Positions 10,174 through 63,200 of a stretch of 64,000 nt of DNA are shown here, piece by piece; the first letter of the stretch is position 1; each line of letters starts with the position of its first letter. Location of the stretch: positions 21,638,001 to 21,702,000 of the forward strand of contig CM022677.1 of NCBI GenBank assembly GCA_012295275.1. Reading direction: 5' to 3'. The notes under the pieces were generated by a model. It saw only the letters and a program-made list of their open reading frames with translations. It searched no databases and had not been told where the DNA came from. A program made the translations under genes and the position numbers. The DNA comes from Chrysomallon squamiferum (lineage: Eukaryota > Animalia > Mollusca).

Positions 10174-11319
10174 GTAATAATAATAATAACAACATTATTT
10201 AGGTGAAAAAACAACAAACAAACAAACTGAAAAAAACCTCCAATAACCCCAGAACAAATGACGCAGAAATTATAAAAGGATTCTTTACATATTCTTTACA
10301 TATATTTTTAAAATAAATATAGAGTATATATTCACTTAATAAGAATGTTTGAGTGTTTGTCAGTGTGTTCGCAAAAATATTTGACACGAGAGTCTAACAT
10401 GGCTATCTGTCTGACTTTGCTAGGGTCCTAGATCGGCGATGTCCCCGACGTTGGCGACATGCATGCACGTCAACGGCGTCCACATGTCAGCGGTGTTGAT
10501 GACGTCCGCAACGCCCATCTAACGTATTCGGTCAAAAAGAGTGCAGATTGTAGTCACTCGCACATAAGACAGACAACAGTGATTCTTAAATACGTACCTA
10601 ACAATGCCTGGTTTCCCACGAAAACAAAACGGACTTAAAAAAAGACGAAAGACCAAGAAAGGAGAGCAATAACAATAACAATAATAATAATTATAAAATT
10701 AATTGTAATATTGATAAAGAAGAAGTAGCTGCAAAAAAGAATAATTAAAAATTACAATAATACAAGTAGTAGCAAAACAGCAAGACCAGTACTACTACTG
10801 CATCTACGAATAATAACAACTACATCAAGAGTAGTAATAATAATACCAAATATAACAATAACAGCACAAACAACAACACCAGTACTACTATTGCATCTAC
10901 GAATAATAACAACTACATCAAGAGTAGTAATAATATACCAAATATAACAATAACAGCACAAACAACAACAATAACAATAATAAGCAACGATAACAATAAT
11001 AATAATTACAACAACACTAGTAATAGCAACGAAACACAATGAGCAACAACTTTAATCAGCTTGTCTTTAATCAACTGTATATTAGAACAATATATTTACT
11101 AACTTGTATATGAATAGTTTATCTTTAATAACTGTTATAATATTATATATCTCTACAGTGACTTGTGTATATCAGCATGTATATCTAATAATTATATATT
11201 AATATTTATGTCTTTAATAACTCGTATGTCAGTATTCGTATTTGTTTAATAACTGGAAAGTAAGTGAGTATCTTTGAAAGCTGAAATTCTGTCATAAATT
11301 ATATTTCGGTATGCATTAC

Positions 11320-49687: not shown

Positions 49688-51189
49688 TGAAATTTGTCAG
49701 AGATTTTCTCTAATGACAAGAAATAAATTGTAAATCAATTTTAATGTTATAGTAGTCTTTGAAAAAAAAACTTACAGTGGTGTTTGTCAAACCAGAATCA
49801 CGCTCAGTGGATGAAAATAATTCTGAATTAAATATTTTATTGGGTGGCAAAACATTTGGTAGAGTTGAAATTTAGGACATCTAGGCATGGCAAAGCTGTG
49901 ACAAAGAATTGTTTGGTTAACTGTCAGATGTTTTCTTACATCTACGAGGGTGAGTGCAGTCTCGTATATAAAACTATACAAAGATGGTTAAATTTGAGGA
50001 AATATTGCAGATAAGCTGTTCAGCACAATTAGAATGAAGTTTAAATAAAGTAGATGAATAAATTAACACAGCTAAACCCCTCAGAACCAAACACTCTGTA
50101 AACTGGAATTCTCTCGAATAACGAACATTTTTGCTATCCCTTTCCAAATATAACAATTTCGGCACTGACGCAATCTTTACTCAGTAACCGAGGGTAATTA
50201 TCAGTTCCAAATCTGCACTCCTTTCATTGTGTTGTGTCATTGTTTTCAGTGCATTTTATTTTTGTGGAAAACCTGGCACTGTTAGATATGTATTTAGCTA
50301 TGAATGTTCTGTGTGATTACAATGTGCACTCTGGTTCAGCAAATAAGTTAGGTTGTCCTGGTGGAGGTGACGGACACCACCGACATGTGGACACCGTTGA
50401 CGCAGATATCGCGAACGTCGTGGTCATCGCCGACAACTTAGTTTCAACATTGTCATAATTCATGGCCGTGTTAGAGTTTCTGTGAGATATATATACTTTT
50501 TTCATTTATTCAGAAGAAGAAATATTCAGTGTCGTGTTAGGCTAGAAGCAGGATCGGCGATGTTTTGTTTTGTGTTTTTTATAATCCACGAGTTTTTCTG
50601 TAGAATCACGCACATACGAAACCTTCAGTTTGCCTCTAAAACGAAACCAAGGCCGATAACTCCTTATTTTAAGGCTATAAACTAGAAAAGAAATGACCTT
50701 TATCCGGTATTTAAACGTCCGTGACAAAGAAAAAAATCTTGCCTCTAGAGATCGCTAAAGATGTTCAAAAATAAATGTTTTAAAAATATTATTTATACAT
50801 TTTGAAACTGATATTTTCCTTGTCGTCCTAGAATCTAACCTTGCCTAATAATTATTATTACCACAGTAAACTCGTAGTTATTTGGGCAGAATGTGGGAGT
50901 AACCCTCTGAAGTACAGCAGTGGGTGGCTTTTAAGCTTGTAATGTAATTATTTTTAACTCTTCATTAATATGTGTTGTAATTTATAATATAAAATCAAAA
51001 GCTCCAAATTATCTCATTCTGCTTTAGCAAATGCTTTTCTTTTATTTCCTAATTGAGCTTGGCATGGCGTGTGTTTATTTTAAAAGATTTCTGATTAGAA
51101 ATCAATCCATAAGTATATAAGAAAAATATAAATAAAAATATAAATAAAAAGTTATTATTGTAAAAGACGATAGTATACTGGTTGTAAAA

Positions 51190-51349
51190 TAATAATGGCG
51201 GAATTTACAATAAAGAAAGAGAGCTTTTTTTTTCTTCTTCTTCTTTTTTTTAATGCTTGCGTACTAATCCAATTTCCGGTTGGAAGAAGCGTCTGCCTGA
51301 TCTTGTAGGAGCCAAGTTTTGCCAGATTTCTTTCTCTGGGGACAGAAAA
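51190..51349 (+). promoter_or_regulatory. Probable promoter/5'UTR of the small membrane protein gene
   Basis: YY1-like AATGGCG (~51194) and ETS-like ATTTCCGG (~51272) immediately upstream of the first ATG exon. Confidence 0.4.
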
Positions 51350-51437
51350 ATGGTAGAATTTGGATCTGGTCCGATAAAAGAGACAATAGACAATACCGTA
51401 TTTATTGTGCCTGGAATCATCATTGGCGTTTTAGTTC
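51350..51437 (+). CDS. Small single-pass membrane protein, alternative first coding exon a
   Basis: AAAAATGG Kozak context; MVEFGSGPIKETIDNTVFIVPGIIIGVLV + C|GTAAGT, 88 nt, phase 1; paralogous to the exon at 55311. Confidence 0.72.
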
Positions 51438-51632
51438 GTAAGTAAAAACACAGCTGGAAAGAATTTAAAAACGTTCACATTTGTTCCATAGCCACCTGCA
51501 GACGTCATTTTAGTATCGTGATATGGTATTAACAAGCATAATACAATATCCTTCATCTTTTTTATTTATTATTATTAGATAGATAGATAGATATACACAC
51601 AAATAAATATTACATCCGTTATATACTTAAAT

Positions 51633-52502
51633 TACTTTGTTTCACAAAATTAGCACTTAATAGGTAATCTTTAGGTCAACCCTTGTTACCAGAAGTTTTA
51701 TTCTATATTTATTGACAATATTTTGTTTTGTTTTATTAACAGTGTGAAATGAAACATTTCCAGAAAGCGCATATAAAACAAATTCTACCAGTCGAACTTG
51801 TCATCAATTTTGACGTAATCGAAACAACATCTCTCTATCTACATATTATTATTATTATTATTATTATTATTTCACTGACTTTAAAGAAGAACAAAATATA
51901 TATTATATAAAATACCATTTTTGTGCAGGCGTCCAGTTACTGGGCAAAAGAATTTACTGAATTGAAACTTGACAGAAATAATCTTCTTTTGTTACAATAA
52001 AATAAATAGTAGTTTATTTTTTTATATGACAAATGGTTACTTTTATATTTGGCTTTTTTAAAACAATATTACAGTACCCCATTTCATAGCACCTTTCCAA
52101 CCGAGACAATATGTATATATCATTCAAACTGCTGGGGTTCATCATAGACATGTATCACTACAAAATAACAGAAATAACTTAGTCTTTGTTTACATACTTA
52201 AAAAGAAATAATTTTAAAAATATATATATATTGAAACAAAAAAGTTGTATAAAGTTTTTAAAATATATATAGTATGTAGATAGATTCTAAGATAGAGAGG
52301 TAGAGGCTGTTTTGGTTACATCCAAGTTGATGACACGTTCCACAGGTTGAATTTGTTTTATATAAGCTTTCTGGGAATGTTTCATTTTATACAATTAATA
52401 AAACAAAACAAAATATTGTCAATAAAAATGGAATGAAACTTTTGGTAACAAGGGGCTGACCTAAAGATTACCTGTTAAGTGTTAATTTTGTAAAACAAAG
52501 TA
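51633..52502. mobile_element. MITE-like fold-back element with ~210-bp imperfect terminal inverted repeats
   Basis: 51633-51840 is the reverse complement of ~52289-52502 (TACTTTGTTTCACAAAATTAGCACTTAATAGGTAATCTTTAGGTCA... / ...TGACCTAAAGATTACCTGTTAAGTGTTAATTTTGTAAAACAAAGTA), with TA at both ends. Confidence 0.8.
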
Positions 52503-52928
52503 TACATGTGTGTGTGTTCCAAATTTGGAAACTCTAGCAAAAGTAGTGTTCATACAGCATATTCCCAAAAATGTTAGGACTGTACAAAAAAAACAAAAAA
52601 ATAAATAAATAAATAAATAAGGTTTTTAAACCATATTTCCATTTACTATAGGTAAAAGGTAATGTTATATATTATTATTATTATTATACAATAGTGTATA
52701 TACACTTTCTTTTTGCAAAAAAAATGGAAACATTTATCTGATTGATTAAATTTTTGATGTATATTTTCTAAACAGTCATGCGAAAAACTTTTTTTTTTTA
52801 ATTCAGTTTTTATCATTTTTCACCTAGCATGTCCCCTTGTGAAAGATGGTTATCAGTGTAAAATGTTCCTTGTTTTTAAAAGGCCTAATACTATAGTTAA
52901 ATTATTAGGGGGGAAAAAAATATATATA

Positions 52929-53210
52929 TTTATAGATAGTAATTATACTTACTGTATGAATTGGTTACCTTTATAGATAGTCAATATGCTTACTGTATGA
53001 AAATATCACATTTATAGATAGTAAATGTACTTACTGTATGAAAATATTTACATTTACAGATAGTAAATATACCTACTATATGAAAATAGTTAAATTTATA
53101 TATAGTAAATATGCTTACTGTGTGAAAATATCACATTTATAGATAGTAAATATACTTACTCCATGAAAAGTTACATTTTTATTATTGTAAATGTCCTTTC
53201 TCTATGAAAA
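52929..53210. repeat. ~40-41-bp minisatellite (TTTATAGATAGTAAATATACTTACTGTATGAAAATATCACA)n, ~7 units
   Basis: Directly visible degenerate tandem array. Confidence 0.85.
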
Positions 53211-53859
53211 CATGTGCGTTGATGTACACCTAGCAACATTTATGTTCATCAAAACTAGACATATCTGTATAACACTATAAAAAAAATGGTGATTTTGAAC
53301 TGGCATATGTTACCACCATGGTCGTGTCAAAAAGTATTTTGTAATACGTACTGCCATTTGAAAGTTTGTAATGTAAATGTTAATGATGCCAAAATAGTTT
53401 GTATTTAAACTTTGTCTGGAAAGAAACGGAAATGACTGTATAATACATTTATTTTTATTTATTATTTATTTTATTTTATTTATTTATTTATTTTTGCTTT
53501 TGTCATTGTAGTAGTAGTAGCAGTAGTAGTAAGAATATTAGTAGAGATACTAGTACTACAACTGGTAGTAGTAATAGCAATGAGAGTACTATTAGGATTA
53601 CTATTGTAGTAGTATTTGCTATTATTATTATTATTATTCATTTATTTGTTTATTTTATTTACCTTTTTTTATTATTATACTGTCTTTTTAATTTTCCCCA
53701 TATCTTTTTTGTTGTTGTTTCTGTTGTATGTGTCTTTTGCTTTCTTCAGATTCTTGATGACCAATGGGTAATAAAATTTCTTATGTAATAATGGAAAACC
53801 TAAGCAAACAATGCCTGCTATAATTTCTTCTTTATTACAAATTACCTTGCAGTGTTATA

Positions 53860-54668
53860 CCGCATATACTTGTGTACAAGTCGAATTTTTGGGAGACTAT
53901 ATTAAGGTAATATTTTGGGGGTCGACTTATACATAGGTAATGCTTTTGTAGCTGTTGCTGAAGAGTCGCCATTTTGACTATTTTTTGCTACAGGATGCAT
54001 CTAAAATAATCGCGGTCTTTCAGCTTTTCAAAAATATAATTTTATCGTATAAAAAAATTTGAAAAATTAAATAACAAAACCAAATATGAATGTAAAACAT
54101 GATATTCTTCCGTTTAATGACATAAAAATACATTTTAAAGCGAGAAAACTGTCACTACGGCGTTATGCCTTACGGCGTCTTGCAATGATCTAGGAATGCA
54201 GACTTCTCTGCCAAATTGCACTAAATATCGGTCCTAATTTCATAAACAAAACTCACTTGTGTAATTGTAAAGAATTTGGTGAAATAATATTGCAATCGTC
54301 ATTAATATCCACTACCGACAAATTTTGTAAATCATAGAACGGCTAAATATAACGGTAAGTTAGGTCTCCATGTTAGACCTATTATATTAAAGAGATACTG
54401 TTTTTGATACATTTAGGCTATAGCTTGTGTAATACATGCATTTACGTTATTATGGTATGTTCGTGCAAGTTACAGCTCGTGCAAGTTATGTTACAGTAGG
54501 CGTACAGTGTAGGCCTTCATGGCACTGTCACACTGGTCTAAAAATAGTGACGGTGCCTGGAATCTACAGTCGACTTATACACAAGTAATACCTTGAATGA
54601 TGCAATTTTTGGTCTTAAAATACACATCGACTTATACATAAGGTCGCCTTGTACACAAGTATATACGG
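53860..54668. mobile_element. Non-autonomous Tc1/mariner-pogo-type MITE with TA target-site duplication
   Basis: TA|CCGCATATACTTGTGTACAAGTCGA ... TCGCCTTGTACACAAGTATATACGG|TA, with internal sub-terminal TCGACTTATAC repeats at ~53922, 54570 and 54627. Confidence 0.85.
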
Positions 54669-55310
54669 TATATATATTTAAATGAATTGGGTTCACCCAA
54701 ATTTGATTGGATGATATCACTTTCTCTGGATCTGGAGGATTAGGAGTGGATTCCAAAGAAGATGATGAAGATGATTAATTTCTTGATGCTGAAAATGTTC
54801 AATTTCAGTTTTCAAAATGTTATAAATAAAAAAAAAAAAACACACACACACACACACAGATATATTATTTACAGAATAAAGGTTGACAAAATACAAATTA
54901 AAAAAATGATAATAAATAAAATAAAATAGAAATGTGTGAATGTTACAGTTAAAACAAACTATTTCAAAAAGTCAAAAAAAAAAAAAAAAAAAAAAATATA
55001 AAAAAAAAATATATTAATTTAGAAAGTCCAGTGAAAATGTATGTATTTGTGTTCATTTTTACTCTGGATGTATCAGTAATGTTAACAGTAAGTCAGTTTT
55101 TAAACAGAGTAAGTGAACTTCGTGATTTTTTTATACTACCCCTGCGGTCCTGCCAACACTGTCAACTACATCACCCACTGTCACAGATGGTTTAGCAATT
55201 ATATTTACCTGATGCTGCAGCTAGCTTTACACACCTTTTTTTCTTTTTTTCTCAATGTTTCCTGACTTCTCATAGATTTTGTAAATGTTTGGACGTTGAG
55301 TGTTGACAAA

Positions 55311-55398
55311 ATGGTGGAGTTTGGAGATAAAGTTGTAAAAGAAGGAATGCATGATGCCGTTTTCATTGTACCAGGAATTTGTGTTTCTGTGTTGTTTG
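55311..55398 (+). CDS. Small single-pass membrane protein, alternative coding exon b
   Basis: CAAAATGG Kozak context; MVEFGDKVVKEGMHDAVFIVPGICVSVLF + G|GTAAGT, 88 nt, phase 1; polypyrimidine tract and acceptor (ctcatag) end at 55275. Confidence 0.72.
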
Positions 55399-56040
55399 GT
55401 AAGTGTATTTAGTGGTTAACAGAAAAAGTTGTGTTTCTGTGTTGTTTGGTAAGAGTATTCAGTGGTTAACACAAAAAAAATATGTTTCTTTGTTGTTTGT
55501 TGGCTGATTAACATGTTGTTTGGTAAATGTGTTTAATGGTTAATAGATAAATTTGTGTTTTGTAAGTGTGTTTTTTGTTGTTGTTTAGTGGTTAACTCTA
55601 GAAATTTGTGTTTCTGTTTTCCTTGTTGTCTGATAAACATATAAATTGTGTTTGTTTATTATTTGGTAAGTGTGTTGGGTAACATATAATTTGTGTTTTC
55701 TGTGTTGTTTTGTTAGTGTCGTTAGTGGTTAACACATAATTTTGTGTTTTGTTTGTTCAGTTGTTAAATACATTTTTGTTTCTGTGGTTTTCTGTGATTA
55801 TGTTCAGTTGTTAACACATAATTTGTTTTGTGTTCATGGATTAGTGGTTAAAATTTATGTTTCATCTTATTTGTTCACTGATTAATATATAATTTGTGTT
55901 TCCATGTTGTTTATTAAGTGAGTTTAATGTTAACATGTAATTTGTGTTATGTTTGAAACATAAATTTGTATATTAAGTTAATTTGTGTTTATATGTTTAT
56001 TGTGAGAGTTTAATCTTAACACATGATTTGTGTTTTTGTT
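55378..56040. repeat. Degenerate ~45-50-bp tandem repeat derived from the exon b/intron junction
   Basis: TTTGTGTTTCTGTGTTGTTTGGTAAGTGTATTTAGTGGTTAACA reiterated with progressive decay. Confidence 0.75.
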
Positions 56041-57400
56041 TCATTAGATACTTTGACAAGAAACACCAGTTCATTGGTTCAGTGCCTAATACTGAAATCT
56101 TTGATGTGTTTACTAGTACTAATACATATTTTGTGTTTCCTTGTTAATGATAACAAGAAGTATCATGAAGGTATAATTATGAATGATCATATTTTGAAAT
56201 TTGTTAAAATTATTATTATTATTATGTCAAAAGAAAATAAAAAAGAAGAGAGATGAGATGATACTTTTACAGGTGAAAGGTGCAAAACTGAATATTCATT
56301 TACACATTTATTTGGTTAATCGATTTCAGAAGGTTGTGAAGTAACAGATCCCTTTCATTTTCTTAAAACTCATTACTGTTAACATCTTTCAGACAATTCT
56401 TTCATAGAACTAGAAGTTCAGTGAGCATGTGTGTCTGTGTATGTAATTATTACTATTATTTCATTTATTATATTCATTTTTTTTTTCCTGTGTCAGCACT
56501 CAGTGATAAGCTGATATATAATATGAAAAGTATTTTGTAAAAAGAAAAAAATAATTTTAAAACACTGAAAGAAATTATTACAAATTTAAAGAACAGTGAA
56601 ATGGAGTTAATCGTTGTTATTCAGGCTGGTGTTAGGGAGAATGCGTTTTCTTAACATCATAAACACTGAGGATATTTTAACCTTCCGAGATACCCAGAAA
56701 ACACTGCAGAAAAATAAACTATCACTGTTATATTTCATATATAATATATATATTGTGATAATGAATTATCTGTCAAATCATTGTTATCTAAGCATTGTTT
56801 AATCACTCACTGTTGTTATACTGCTATGTCATACAAACGAAATGATGAGTCGGGTAGGCAGGAACATTGTATACATACATGTACATCAAAAGGTCTCATA
56901 TAATATTAATTTAGTTTACAAACGTTAGTAATGTATATATATATGTATATATCTATATTTCTCTGTATGTTTATGTGTGCATGTGTATATCTGTATGTGT
57001 GGATAGATAGACAGATTGATGTATAGATAGATATACAAACATACGTGTACATACATACACAGACATTCATTCATTCACACATGCATACATACACACACAC
57101 ACACATTCACACACAAACGTACATCAATCTGTCTTTCTACCATATACATTTATTAATAACAACAACACATACTAATAAATACACATCGTGATGCGACATA
57201 CCACCGGCCTTGCTTGACCTACTTTACACGTTCTATATATAGCCAAATTAGTAATGACTTCATCAGCATAGGCCATGACAGCTGTTGTCGTAGCCAGCCA
57301 CGTGGGTTGGTCAGGGTTATCAACAACAACAGCATATGTTAGTGTTTGGGAGATTCTCACACCGTGAACGTTGTAACTGAAAAAAAAAAAAAAAAAAAAC

Positions 57401-57515
57401 ATGGCTTCAGAAAATATTTCACATCATCAGAAAAGTAGTGGAGAGGCCATTATGAGCAATTATTACAGTCTTGTTTTGTTGTTCATTTTTGCCAGTATCT
57501 CAGGAGCAGTTTTGG
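57401..57515 (+). CDS. Small single-pass membrane protein, alternative coding exon c
   Basis: AAACATGG Kozak context; MASENISHHQKSSGEAIMSNYYSLVLLFIFASISGAVL + G|GTAACT, 115 nt, phase 1, hydrophobic 3' end. Confidence 0.6.
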
Positions 57516-59428
57516 GTAACTTATGTTTTTAATATCTGTTATTTATTTATATATTTATTTATTTATTTATTTATTATTAGTAAGTAGCATTAGTAGTAAT
57601 AGTAGTAGTAGTTGTAATGGTTGAAGTTGTAGTATTAATTTTTATTATTAGTACTATTACTAGTACTACTGCTGCAACTACTGCTGTTGTTATTTTCACG
57701 TGTTATTATTATTATTATGAATCTTGTCCTGTATGTAACCACTTTGGGATTTATCATTCTTAATTAGTATTAATGAATATTATTTATTATTATAAATATG
57801 TTCTTTCTTTATTTCTTCTCATGGGTATCAATTTTTTATTACTATTTATTTTATTTATTTTTTAATCCTTCTTACATTATTATTTGTATTTTTTGGTATT
57901 TTTATTATTATTATTATTATTATGATTATCTTTCAAAATTTATCTTTTTAACAAAATAAACAGCTGGAACTGATAATTTTAGTTTTAAACTGAAATTCTT
58001 TTATTCAATTATTCATTTATATATGTGTGTGCTTATTGGACAGTACTTACATTAGTATTAATTACTGTCTGTTTTGATAATGTGTTTGTCATTTATGTGG
58101 AATGAATATATACATAAATACTTTTGTTTGTGTGTGTATGTGTGTGAGATGTTTCTCTTATTTTCATCCTTTCTTTTCTTTTTGTTCCTCTCTCCATCCA
58201 TTATTTATTTATTTATTTATCTTTTAATTAATGATACTAAAACAATAGTTGTCTGTTTCTGTTTATTTTGTTTTGGAAAAACTAAATGCTTCCTTGGCCA
58301 ATTATTTTATTTTATTTATTTATAAGTTCATTTATATATTTATTTATAAGACTGTATATATCAGAACACTTTATTTGTATTTATTGGTTTGCCAAATTCG
58401 TGTATAAATTATCATTTGTTTTTATTCGTATACACTTTAACATATTTGGTTCAGTTGAATAAACAGTGAGGGGTGACAGAAGTGGAACTGCCAATTTTAT
58501 GAAACAATTTATTAACTTTTTATTTTTATTTTTTCCTTTCCTTATTTATTATTTTCTTTCTTGTATGATAAACGAAATAATCAAGAATCGATTTTTAGAC
58601 ATTTTACAGCACGACTGGTAATCGTTTGTATTACGCTTTTCCGAATTTGCACACATAATAAATAATCCACGGGTACCAGTGTCGGCTTATAAATGGGGGG
58701 GCGGTGATGAGCGGGAAATTGCAACGTCTGCTAACGTAATCAGATTTGAATAAAAGCAAATCGGTATTTAAATATAGGTTTAGGTTTTAAATAATTCATG
58801 ATAATAGACCTAGCAGTAAATATGTATCACTTTCCGCATCTCATAAACATATTTATTTTTCTCCACGTGTCGGGGCAGAGGCAAGTAAGTAAAATGTATT
58901 ATTATTGTTAATTTTATTCGCATGAATTGATTAATTATAATGAGGAACGTGATAATGAGCATATATAAACCGCCGACAAGATTCTGCATTCCACTGTATT
59001 CTAGTAAGTCACTATGTTGTATGTATGAGTAATAAAAAAACATTTTTCATGATATTAATTAATATAACGACTGTTTAAGTAAGTATTTATAAACGTTAAA
59101 ATTTTTTTTTTTTTTAAAAGAATACGCTAACCTTATTTTTCCAAACTACACTGGAAAATTTGTATTACTATAATTATCTGTAAACTATGTTTAAACACTT
59201 TTTTTTAATAATTTATTTATTTATTGTTTTTATGACCTTTTGGTGCTTTTTATTTCATTTTTATTTAAAAAAAAAAAAATAATTTCTATATTTTTCTTCA
59301 TTTCTTTATTTTCTGATTTTTATTTAATTAATTTAAGTTTTTATTTTTATTTTATTTTTATCTCCTAAGTGTGTTTGATATGTTTTTATTATTATATTAT
59401 TGTTCTCTATGTTTTACTTTGAAATAAA

Positions 59429-59476
<48 letters not shown>

Positions 59477-60136
59477 GAAAAAAGAGTGATAATTTTTTCT
59501 TGCATTAGACTAAGTGTTAGCTAGGTGAAAGGAAATCCTGTCCACATTCAATGATTCAGAAAGTAACTTGAATCATTTCTTTACTGAAACAACCATAGCA
59601 TAAATATGTTGTCTTTTTTATATGCTGTTTTACTTATTTTTATTTGAAATTAGTGTCAAAAATATTTTTTCTTCTTTTTGTAAAATTAGTAATTATTTGA
59701 GAAGTGCAGTATTAATTTATGTAATTACAATTTATTGGTATTGTTGTAATTCTTTACAATACATGATAGTTTTGTGATGTTCTGCACTGTCTGGAATAAT
59801 AATAGTAATAAATAAACAAATAAGTAAATAAATCTGTCATGTTGTTAAAGTGTACCCATAGCTCATGATGTTGTCCTGCAGTCAAAAATATTTTCAGGCA
59901 AATTTGTGAAGATCTCTGATTTATGATAATGTATTATTAATATGACATTTATTATTTCTGTTGCTTTTATTATCTTTATCCATATCATTATATTATTATT
60001 AATATTTACTACTTTAATTATTATTGTTATTGTTGTCGTTATTATTTTTATCATCGATATCATTATTTTAGAAGATTGTGAAACTATTTTAGCTTTTTAC
60101 TTTTTCAAAACTGTATTTATATATTTTATTTTTCAG

Positions 60137-60258
60137 TTTTTTTCTCCTACAAACTAATAGCCAGTTTACGAGAAAAGGAGAGAGCAAGAGAAGATAAGAA
60201 GAAATTAAAGCAGCAGAGAAAAGAAAAAGAACTACAGAAGAAACAAAAAAAGAAATAA
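60137..60258 (+). CDS. Small single-pass membrane protein, common terminal coding exon (TM end + Lys/Glu-rich tail)
   Basis: Strong acceptor ttttatttttcag; phase-1 reading (L/V)FFSYKLIASLREKERAREDKKKLKQQRKEKELQKKQKKK*. Possible 3'UTR intron from GTAAGA at 60265 to ttttacag at 62388. Confidence 0.75.
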
Positions 60259-63200
60259 GAATGTGTAAGATTTGTTTTGTTTACAGCAGAGTGCATTTAA
60301 GCAGAAGTTTGAATTGTCTTTATTCAAGTGGAACTTAGTATTATTTTTAAGTCACTTTCACAAAAATCTCAAATACCTTTCTTGGTTTTTTCCTGGCAGT
60401 TTTGTATTTCCACCTTAAAGTACACTTGTGGTGATACGTATAAAAAGGATGAAATACATTTTGCAGCTTGTCAATGTAGTTTCAGCATACTGTATAGCTT
60501 AATCCTAGGATTGAAATTATTATCAGGCAAATAATTTTTAATTTAAGAAAAACAAATTGTTTTTATTTCTGTTTGTTTTATTTTTGGGGGGTCAGGGGTT
60601 GCCAGTTACTTATTATCAGACAGTTCTGTGATTAAGTAAAAAGTTTGGTTTGGAGAGGTACATGGTATAATTAGGTTTTATAGTTAGATAAATCTGTTAA
60701 GACTTGGGACTGCAGAATTTGTTTCATTTTAGGGTAATTCTATTTCGAGAAGTTGAATTTATATATTTCTTACACTTAATTATTAGTAATGGTTAGAAGT
60801 TTAATAGTAAGATGACAGGATTTAACTGAGAATGTACCCAGAGTAAATGAAATAAGGATTTAAAAAAACACAAACAAAATGTAACATTTTCTGTTACCAT
60901 CTAAAAGTATGAAATAATTTTTTTGTTTTTTTTTTTTTTTTTTTCTCACTTAGTGTAATACCACTGCACAAATAAAAATGTTTAAAAAAAAAAAAAAAGT
61001 AGAAAAGAAAGGAATATTCCAGTGTTGATCAGAAATTCAGAATATTGTCTATTCGGTCTTACTTTGTAGTTGTATGCTCATCTCGGTTTTTTGAACTTTA
61101 TTTCATGAGCAATACTTTATTATTTGTTCACTGTAGCACTAAGTATTATAGGACAAAACCTGATACATGAAATGAAATGTTCATTTAGCCAAAACAAAAA
61201 AAGGAAAAAGTGTCTGTGTGTATGTTATATATTACTTGCCACGCTGCATTTAGAAAACAGACAAGAAACAAAAGAATTATACTTATTCAGAAGAAAATAT
61301 TGATTTAAGCTGTTTTTGTGTTTAAAAAATAATAATAATTATAATAAAATTAAATGTATTAATCATTCATTGGTAATAAAGTAAACAAAATAAAGTGGAA
61401 GAACTATTAATCAATTTACAAAATGTCATTAAGCACATACTTCATAATGCAATAAGCACTTGTTAATAAAAAGTATTTCCAGGATAAGATTGAAATGGTC
61501 TGTTTTATGACTGTATGACACTGGACAAAATAATTAACTGTTATGACAGTGAAATTCTCTACCCATTCCATGACCTCGTGTTTCCAATTACTGCAAGAAA
61601 TCTTTTTTAAAACACCATCACTCAAACAGCAGTATTCGTATCATGGCCCTTTTGCACTAGTTGTGGAGTAGATGCTGGAACAAGAAATCGGTTGAATGGT
61701 CATATGAGTGGGATAATCCATCACACTTCGACCATGACCTCTGTCCCTGAGATAAATTCCAATTTTGATTATTAGGAAGTGCAGAAAGTGTATTCAGACT
61801 TTTTGTTCGTGTCACACCACCTGTTAAGATGTATTCATTAAAACAATCATAGAAAAGAATCAAATTTAATTAAAAAAAAAAAAAAGTGGTTTTAATAAAA
61901 AGATCTTGTTAACTTATTATCTGAAAAATTTAAGAAAGGTTTAGCTTAAATGCACTTTACTGTATTTATTTATTTATTTTTCTGTTTCTTTATTTCTTTT
62001 TAAAATATTTCTTTTCATTATTGTTATGAAAGTTAACTAGCACTATACGTTTAATATAAGAACGAAGTAAAACATTTAAATTTCTTATATTATAATCAAT
62101 TGTTTTCTAAAAATGTGTTTAAAGTATAACAGTTTAAATTATTATTATTATTATTATTATTATTATCATCATCATCATAACTTTTTTGACATACCGATGG
62201 ACTATAGAATTTTATTTATAATATAAAAATTGAATTTACACTATACTATATCATAATGACAACAGGAAATATGTGTTCAGTTTGTTAATGGTTGTGTTAT
62301 TCTTTACTGTTTATTCATGTTCATTTGTTTATTATGTTAATTATTGTTCTTGTTCTTGATTTTTAGTTTTAGTTTTTTTGTTTTACAGGAGACTTTAAAC
62401 AATTCATAAACAACACTGGCTCAAAATTGTGAAGTTAAAAACTTATTTTTTTTTATGAAAAAGAAGAAGAAGAAAGAAACCTGTTTGCTGTCATCTTTGA
62501 AAGAGGAGACAGCTGCTTCTTGGGATGATAACTGAATAACATTAGCAGGGAGGATATATGATAATATTCAAGGGGGGAAACGTAAAATTCATGGCAGGCA
62601 TCACCTAGTATTGAATAATGGTTGTGAATGTGGGAAACAATAACTGTAATGGAAGCAGAAATTGATGATTTGAAGGGGAGGTAACTTAATTGCAACGGGG
62701 AGACAACTGGGAGAGGACAATGTGCCTGTTTGACTATGTTGATAGTGTAAATGCCTATGTTGAAGGATTTTCATAACGAAGATTTTGAATAGATAAGCAT
62801 AAATCTTCTTTTCTTTTTTTTTTCTTAATAACTCATCAGAATATTTATTATGACATATTTATGGTGTGTCCATACATTTATTTATAAAAATGTTTCATAT
62901 ATAAAATGTATCAAGGGGTCAAAGTTTAGTGTGTATTAATTATGGTTTACAATGTTTCGTGTCGGATGAGGTTCAAATTTAGTTCAAAAAGTTGGTAAAC
63001 TGAACTTGGTTTCACATAACATAAATAAAATTAAAATAGTTTCTGTGTGAAGGGATCAATATTTGATACATTTAATAAACTGTTTATGGTTTAACAAAGA
63101 GAATACAATATTTATAATGTATATAAAAGGCTGGAATCAAAATTTAGTTTATATAGAATGCTGTTTTTGTAAATTGATGATCATTTGATAAATATATTTG

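Follow-up and report, generated by a model that had tools for sequence, protein, structure and literature searches.

The plus strand of a 64,000-nucleotide (nt) stretch of the Chrysomallon squamiferum genome (assembly GCA_012295275.1, contig CM022677.1, positions 21,638,001 to 21,702,000; hereafter the window, whose own numbering is used throughout) carries a microprotein gene. Its architecture is very probably that of alternative first coding exons and one constant exon. Three front exons, a, b and c, lead into the same lysine-rich end, and we consider it probable that all three are in use. The joined frames and the homologues argue that the gene is real and that its swap design is conserved across the protostomes. 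They support the single-pass microprotein gene with variable front exons that a first-pass annotation, made by a model from the letters of this DNA, had proposed. The alternative-first-exon design is already known; the microprotein family is uncatalogued.

Joined frames and the conserved swap point

The coding parts of exons a (51350–51437, 88 nt), b (55311–55398, 88 nt) and c (57401–57515, 115 nt) each start with ATG, have a length of 1 mod 3 and end in phase 1. Their donors are GTAAGT, GTAAGT and GTAACT, respectively, and the acceptor TTTTCAG precedes the coding part of the constant exon (60137–60258). In scripted joins, each front exon runs in frame into the exon at 60137 and reaches the stop in 60258, giving products of 69, 69 and 78 amino acids (aa), so the exons and frames first annotated here are borne out. 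Each of the three ATGs, to which a good Kozak context had been ascribed, is flanked by A at −3 and G at +4, a context shared by only 11 of the 195 ATGs in 50300–60137. Other ATG...GT candidates in the introns at 57523, 58499 and 59622 were rejected as low-complexity.

The best 19-residue hydrophobic stretch of the three products has a mean hydropathy of 2.3–2.6, and 14–15 of its residues come from the variable exon and the remainder from the constant exon. The splice junction thus falls within the membrane helix, as had been claimed. The net charge is −1 to −2 before this stretch and +11 after it. Among the 3199 six-frame peptides of the window, the constant exon is found by a profile of homologous tails at an expectation value (E) of 4.2e-18.

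Exhaustive searching with the constant exon yielded 31 relatives, and profiles built from them found 127 and then 156 (the best 120 of each listed), bringing the distinct proteins to 224 overall; when the constant exon was used by itself in a word-based search, no candidate homologue came up. The named members are from bivalves, gastropods, annelids, nemerteans, chelicerates and insects. Neither Drosophila nor any deuterostome is represented among the best 120 of the 127 or of the 156, these searches being word-limited and not implying absence. A metagenome scan gave at least three loci (L001–L003), and in these three the acceptor has the window's position and phase; they carry the constant exon only, with no a- or c-type head within 2–3 kb.

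The swap point itself recurs in the family. In 11 of 12 homologue pairs, chosen by shared locus number or species, the N-termini are unrelated (at most two shared starting residues) and the ends are identical from 0–2 residues before the FFxYKL motif; the Helicoverpa pair is the misfit. Nine of the 11 fitting pairs are RefSeq isoforms of one locus, in wasps, a mite, a beetle, moths and butterflies. Maniola hyperantus X2/X3, left out of the 12, joins two similar but non-identical heads to one tail, which looks like a recent head duplication. Among 54 proteins that have an a-type head, 5, including those of an annelid and three insects, have a second head between the a-type head and the tail, as in the order of the window. 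P0026, from a 942-nt contig, joins an a head to a c-type head.

At least two types of long acidic head occur in insects, and a crude test finds a signal-peptide-like start in six of the long forms. These six heads (P0108, P0118, P0134, P0140, P0143 and P0161) share an acidic helical hairpin pattern (P-x-x-EELL...LS-EE-K...LR), with no Pfam family among them and a low-confidence fold. In the model of an insect long-head isoform, the head is of low confidence, with a mean predicted local distance difference test score (pLDDT) of 66. The odd N-termini of many database entries look as if the models had run on into the intron upstream of the constant exon. A further member, P0164, is named 'Protein orai-2' by its source and looks misannotated.

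Sequence comparison thus indicates a swap design shared by the protostomes, and the frames, on whose conservation in related species the first-pass annotation had staked its proposal, are conserved from molluscs through insects. The family is ancient and without a Pfam model, and its isoforms stand in RefSeq unremarked. A literature search found no paper on the family or its isoforms; it did not cover supplements and subscription journals, and work may exist under the name of a Drosophila gene.

Several points weigh against this architecture. In the window, the junctions from a, b and c to 60137 are predicted rather than read-supported; four RNA runs contain 0.07–0.17 of the sampled words of 51000–60990 and give no evidence on junctions. 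Among 676 GTs, scored by a donor matrix, donor a is at the 91st percentile with a poor exon side, and donor c is at the 96th without the G at +5; the strongest of the three is that of exon b. The same-locus pairs are all arthropod and are annotation models only. Among the named molluscs, none yielded both an a-type and a c-type protein; the two types occur together in the window, in P0026 and in the pair P0045/P0024.

The three heads

Exon a carries the conserved head, made up of 15 polar residues and two thirds of the membrane helix, on its outer side, and appears ancestral. Searched against the window peptides, a profile of 44 a-type N-termini finds it at E 4.8e-15; exon b follows at E 4.6e-08, and the next best is at E 5. 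Its identity is 22–26 of 29 residues with six named molluscs, 14 of 29 with two annelids and 9–13 of 29 with four arthropods. Across a-type heads (n = 45), the luminal motif G-P, N, F, P is conserved at 89–98%.

Exon b is paralogous to exon a, and their comparison indicates that it is a diverged copy under purifying selection. The two are identical at 53 of 88 nt, and the 29 codons divide into 6 identical, 10 synonymous and 13 non-synonymous. The proportions of synonymous and non-synonymous differences (pS and pN) are 0.72 and 0.31, and the corresponding distances (dS and dN) 2.4 and 0.39. The resulting dN/dS of about 0.16 (Fisher p 0.0035) bears out the selection that had been suggested from synonymous changes. 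In neutral simulations, with insertions and deletions outside the model, only 5 of 200,000 kept the start, frame and donor of exon b and at least 16 of 29 residues.

Conservation is uneven along exon b. Twelve mollusc-type heads have 16 invariant columns in common; exon a keeps all 16 and exon b 10, and the six missing are the luminal SGP and IDN motifs. Hence, by its substitutions, exon b has had its luminal head changed and its membrane part held.

An alternative, which we consider unlikely, is that only a and c are working starts and that exon b is a decaying duplicate or an internal exon after a, for a two-helix product. The six lost columns favor it, and no b-type head is among the 224 fetched proteins. 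A TAG acceptor with a pyrimidine tract lies 35 nt upstream of the exon b ATG, in frame with exon a, and the putative 5′ part of the exon behind it (55276–55310) is open, so that a, b and the constant exon can be read through together; P0026 offers a parallel in its joined heads. Exon b may therefore also serve as an internal exon, although this acceptor is not among the 22 best-scoring ones. A degenerate 50/126-nt tandem repeat (55379–56040) starts within the 3′ end of exon b and contains downstream copies of that exon's donor (TTG|GTAAG at 55448 and 55665); read-through to the copies meets a stop. Like the missing b-type homologue, the acceptor and the repeat count also against three plain first exons. 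On the other side, the synonymous sites are near saturation, yet the ATG context, length, frame and donor of exon b are intact, as rarely happened in the simulations, and the donor is the best of the three. We thus keep to exon b as one of three alternative starts.

Exon c is absent from the listed matches of the a-type profile, and an unanchored profile search with seven sequences does not single it out (E 2.1, fifth of the window peptides). Anchored at the exon boundary and scored on the last 20 residues before the donor, it ranks first of the 2935 open phase-1 GT-ended frames of the window (shuffle p 6e-5). Its score of 25.8 lies inside the leave-one-out range (20.75–38.5) of the references, which are the non-a heads of Sinanodonta, Littorina, Pomacea and Patella and P0026. 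An in-frame stop lies 27 nt upstream of its ATG.

By this likeness, exon c is a conserved second mollusc head. The N-I-S sequon noticed in it earlier is present at residues 5–7, and a sequon before the membrane helix is found in 5/5 c-type references versus 2/44 a-types. The head is probably glycosylated, by which the N-terminus would be luminal.

The constant tail and its possible partner

The constant exon supplies the inner end of the membrane helix (FFxYKL), a basic helix with an EEKKKxK-type motif, the KxKxx end and the stop. Among 144 distinct tails, the conserved columns include F1 (99%), Y4 (94%), K5 (97%), L6 (100%), S9 (91%), E19 (93%), K20 (100%) and K24 (97%). The periodicity of conservation is strongest at helical angles, 110 degrees for the membrane part and 100 degrees for the tail. 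The homologue P0049 is predicted as one continuous helix over residues 16–71, with a mean pLDDT of 83. Of the last 29 residues, 16 are basic, 6 acidic and 3 hydrophobic. The basic coiled coil of the first-pass annotation was dropped, since there is no hydrophobic heptad, and the tail looks like a charged single helix.

Dilysine retrieval to the endoplasmic reticulum (ER) takes K at −3 plus K at −4 or −5 on a cytosolic C-terminus. The window's tail ends in KxKxx and fits this rule, as annotated, and 132 of the 144 distinct tails end in KKxx or KxKxx, where 57 are expected from shuffles. The positional and helical conservation, the one-helix model and the dilysine ends together point to a protein of the ER with a single conserved partner, bound along one face. 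We lean towards such an ER adaptor.

No search named the partner. Foldseek with an a-type model gave 0 matches, and the PDB sequence searches gave none below E 0.04, the best being E 0.075 and 0.044. In Pfam, no family is above its cut-off for the window stretch or P0028, and the 45 a-type and 42 insect members gave weak matches only.

The mechanism that we propose starts from the three alternative first coding exons, which would be spliced one at a time onto the constant exon to make three small single-pass proteins. Their topology would be N-out and C-in, as suggested by the charge before and after the membrane stretch, the c-type sequon and the signal-peptide-like insect starts, and the KxKxx end would keep them in the ER. 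The constant exon would supply a one-sided binding face, FFxYKLxxSL and then EEKKKxK, for one conserved partner. By analogy with FKBP11, which has a membrane helix and a basic C-terminal helix, the partner would most likely be the ribosome–Sec61 assembly. Exon a would be the ancestral default isoform, and b, c and the long acidic insect heads would be lineage-specific additions, probably with their own promoters, that alter the luminal presentation.

FKBP11 is the only mechanistic lead, and one by analogy. In the PDB search, the profile matches its residues 164–200 at E 0.31, and GYxL and KKKLK line up once a 3-residue gap is passed. FKBP11 (PDB 9n9j; PMC12804085) is likewise an N-luminal single-pass protein with GYxL at the inner helix end, a KKKLK basic helix and a lysine-rich end. 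Its positively charged C-terminal helix adjoins uL22 and helix H24 of the 28S rRNA at the translocon, according to the same source. It differs in that the window's heads are 29–38 aa without a peptidyl-prolyl isomerase domain (no such Pfam match), and ribosome binding would here be by analogy.

The ER adaptor and its ribosome partner have their own weak points. The FKBP11 match is not significant, comes third after two MFSD2A chains and does not recur with the insect profile. As many as 51 and 57 Pfam families match weakly, as a membrane helix followed by lysines generally yields. The tail spectrum has sizeable peaks also at 80 and 120 degrees. As the tails end in poly-lysine, the dilysine count may exaggerate the retrieval signal, and insects dominate that count. 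The ribosome–translocon is thus a tentative choice of partner, held at somewhat less than an even chance, and the full reading of a ribosome–translocon adaptor with swappable luminal heads is similarly tentative.

The same exon design would also suit small subunits that regulate or assist a single membrane pump, channel or enzyme, like FXYD, phospholamban or sarcolamban proteins; the constant half-helix would bind this target, and the swapped heads would tune it by tissue. The small size, single helix and one conserved helical face fit this, as does the strongly conserved short luminal motif of the a-types; FXYD2 has alternative N-termini. However, there is no significant match to a solved chain (the two best E-values above) or to a Pfam family, and the long basic tail and the 60–120-residue acidic insect heads are unlike the known regulators of this kind. 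We regard this as a doubtful alternative, though one close behind the ribosome–translocon adaptor.

A far less probable one is an inner-nuclear-membrane protein like plant S1Fa, in which the basic helix would serve nuclear targeting or nucleic-acid binding and the heads would lie in the perinuclear space. The second ESM Atlas match of P0049 is an S1FA cluster with a score of 0.90 and 193 of 256 features shared, and plant S1FA (PF04689) is also about 70 aa, with a membrane helix and then a basic stretch. Plant S1FA is not known to have alternative heads. The score falls to 0.76 with the window's own stretch, PF04689 is absent for the window tail (E up to 10) and from the 25 families listed for 45 homologues, and the dilysine end fits ER retrieval instead. 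In rice, OsS1Fa1 is an inner-nuclear-membrane protein that interacts with OsSUN1 (PMC11633190).

Another proposal, compatible with any mechanism, is that the family is a diverged protostome counterpart of SMIM15 (UPF0542, PF15086), to which the first-pass annotation had likened it. SMIM15 is similarly of about 70 aa with one membrane helix and a basic tail, and UPF0542 is the commonest weak Pfam match in insect members. At E up to 0.05, it is matched by 13 of the 45 a-type (best 5.2e-4) and 30 of the 42 insect members (best 2e-4), values that we take as about 21 bits because such E-values accompanied that score elsewhere. UniRef and the Atlas label some members so. As homology, however, the likeness falls below the Pfam gathering cut-off of 27 bits, with 8.3 bits for the window stretch and 18.2 for P0028. 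The Atlas cluster with the UPF0542 name has no common Pfam family, and the name appears an automatic label. Moreover, the unrelated LapA_dom, TRAP_alpha and RIC3 score alike, which points to a composition effect. We judge this homology unlikely.

Surroundings, known systems and significance

Putative promoter elements upstream of exon a are a YY1-like site at 51194, a CCAAT box at 51269 and an ETS-like site at 51274 (51194–51279), which would be of the housekeeping type. They are consensus matches only, and the YY1-like 8-mer occurs 5 times in the window. A TATA-like box (57234–57242) about 165 nt upstream of the exon c ATG is weak and lies in AT-rich sequence. The probable 3′ untranslated region (UTR) extends over 60259–61470, with the first AATAAA at 60971 and a cluster at 61343–61465. 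All these elements are on the plus strand.

The intron after exon a holds an element like a miniature inverted-repeat transposable element (51633–52502), with terminal inverted repeats of about 210 nt that are 85–92% complementary. A 41-nt minisatellite of about 7 copies is at 52917–53209, and a dispersed repeat at 50307–50472 has inverted copies near 10500, 18100, 28300 and 36450. Downstream, 62389–62780 has a strong acceptor followed by sequence of higher GC content whose frames are broken; it may be a mobile element in decay or a UTR exon. At least six terminal exons with WND..C..FICKY, C-type-lectin-like by this motif, lie at about 6770–49690, five on the minus strand and one on the plus strand, as a tandem lectin cluster. 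The plus-strand one ends about 1.7 kb upstream of exon a.

As an architecture, the window's layout would work like the UGT1, GCNT2 and clustered protocadherin loci, with own promoters and separate splicing of the front exons putative. Those loci (PMC1885805, PMC3325998) share tandem same-phase coding first exons upstream of a constant exon, and lineage-specific duplication of variable exons is seen here too in a/b and in the butterfly head pair P0120/P0129. In contrast, the family product is of 63–165 aa and not a large enzyme or receptor, and the join is inside the membrane helix. Not all heads are paralogues, some being unalignable; there are about three front exons, and the host is a protostome. 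The Ugt1, Gcnt2 and Ugt2a organizations are termed vertebrate-specific in PMC1885805.

The true orthologous family is found among uncharacterized loci, such as Leptopilina boulardi LOC127279214, Brevipalpus obovatus LOC141852087, Nicrophorus vespilloides LOC108562878 (RefSeq X1–X3) and Pinctada KAK3094353.1. They share the window's tail, join point and a-type head. They differ in that the b type is not seen and the non-a heads vary by lineage, and they are unnamed, with no function assigned.

The farthest reading, which we hold as rather doubtful, is of a protostome-wide plug-and-play translocon adaptor, in which one ancestral head was kept for more than half a billion years as new luminal heads were invented or duplicated. 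Equally doubtful is its corollary that the new heads would be glycosylated in molluscs and acidic, helical and sometimes signal-peptide-bearing in insects. If true, this would mean cell-type-specific control of secretory protein biogenesis by a single tiny gene.

In summary, the gene defines a highly conserved protostome microprotein family, in which one modular gene would stand behind the fused models, the intron-derived N-termini and the SMIM15 label. The junction fixed inside the membrane helix parts a constant docking half from exchangeable heads, which would make the family a natural experiment on the roles of the partner and of the heads.

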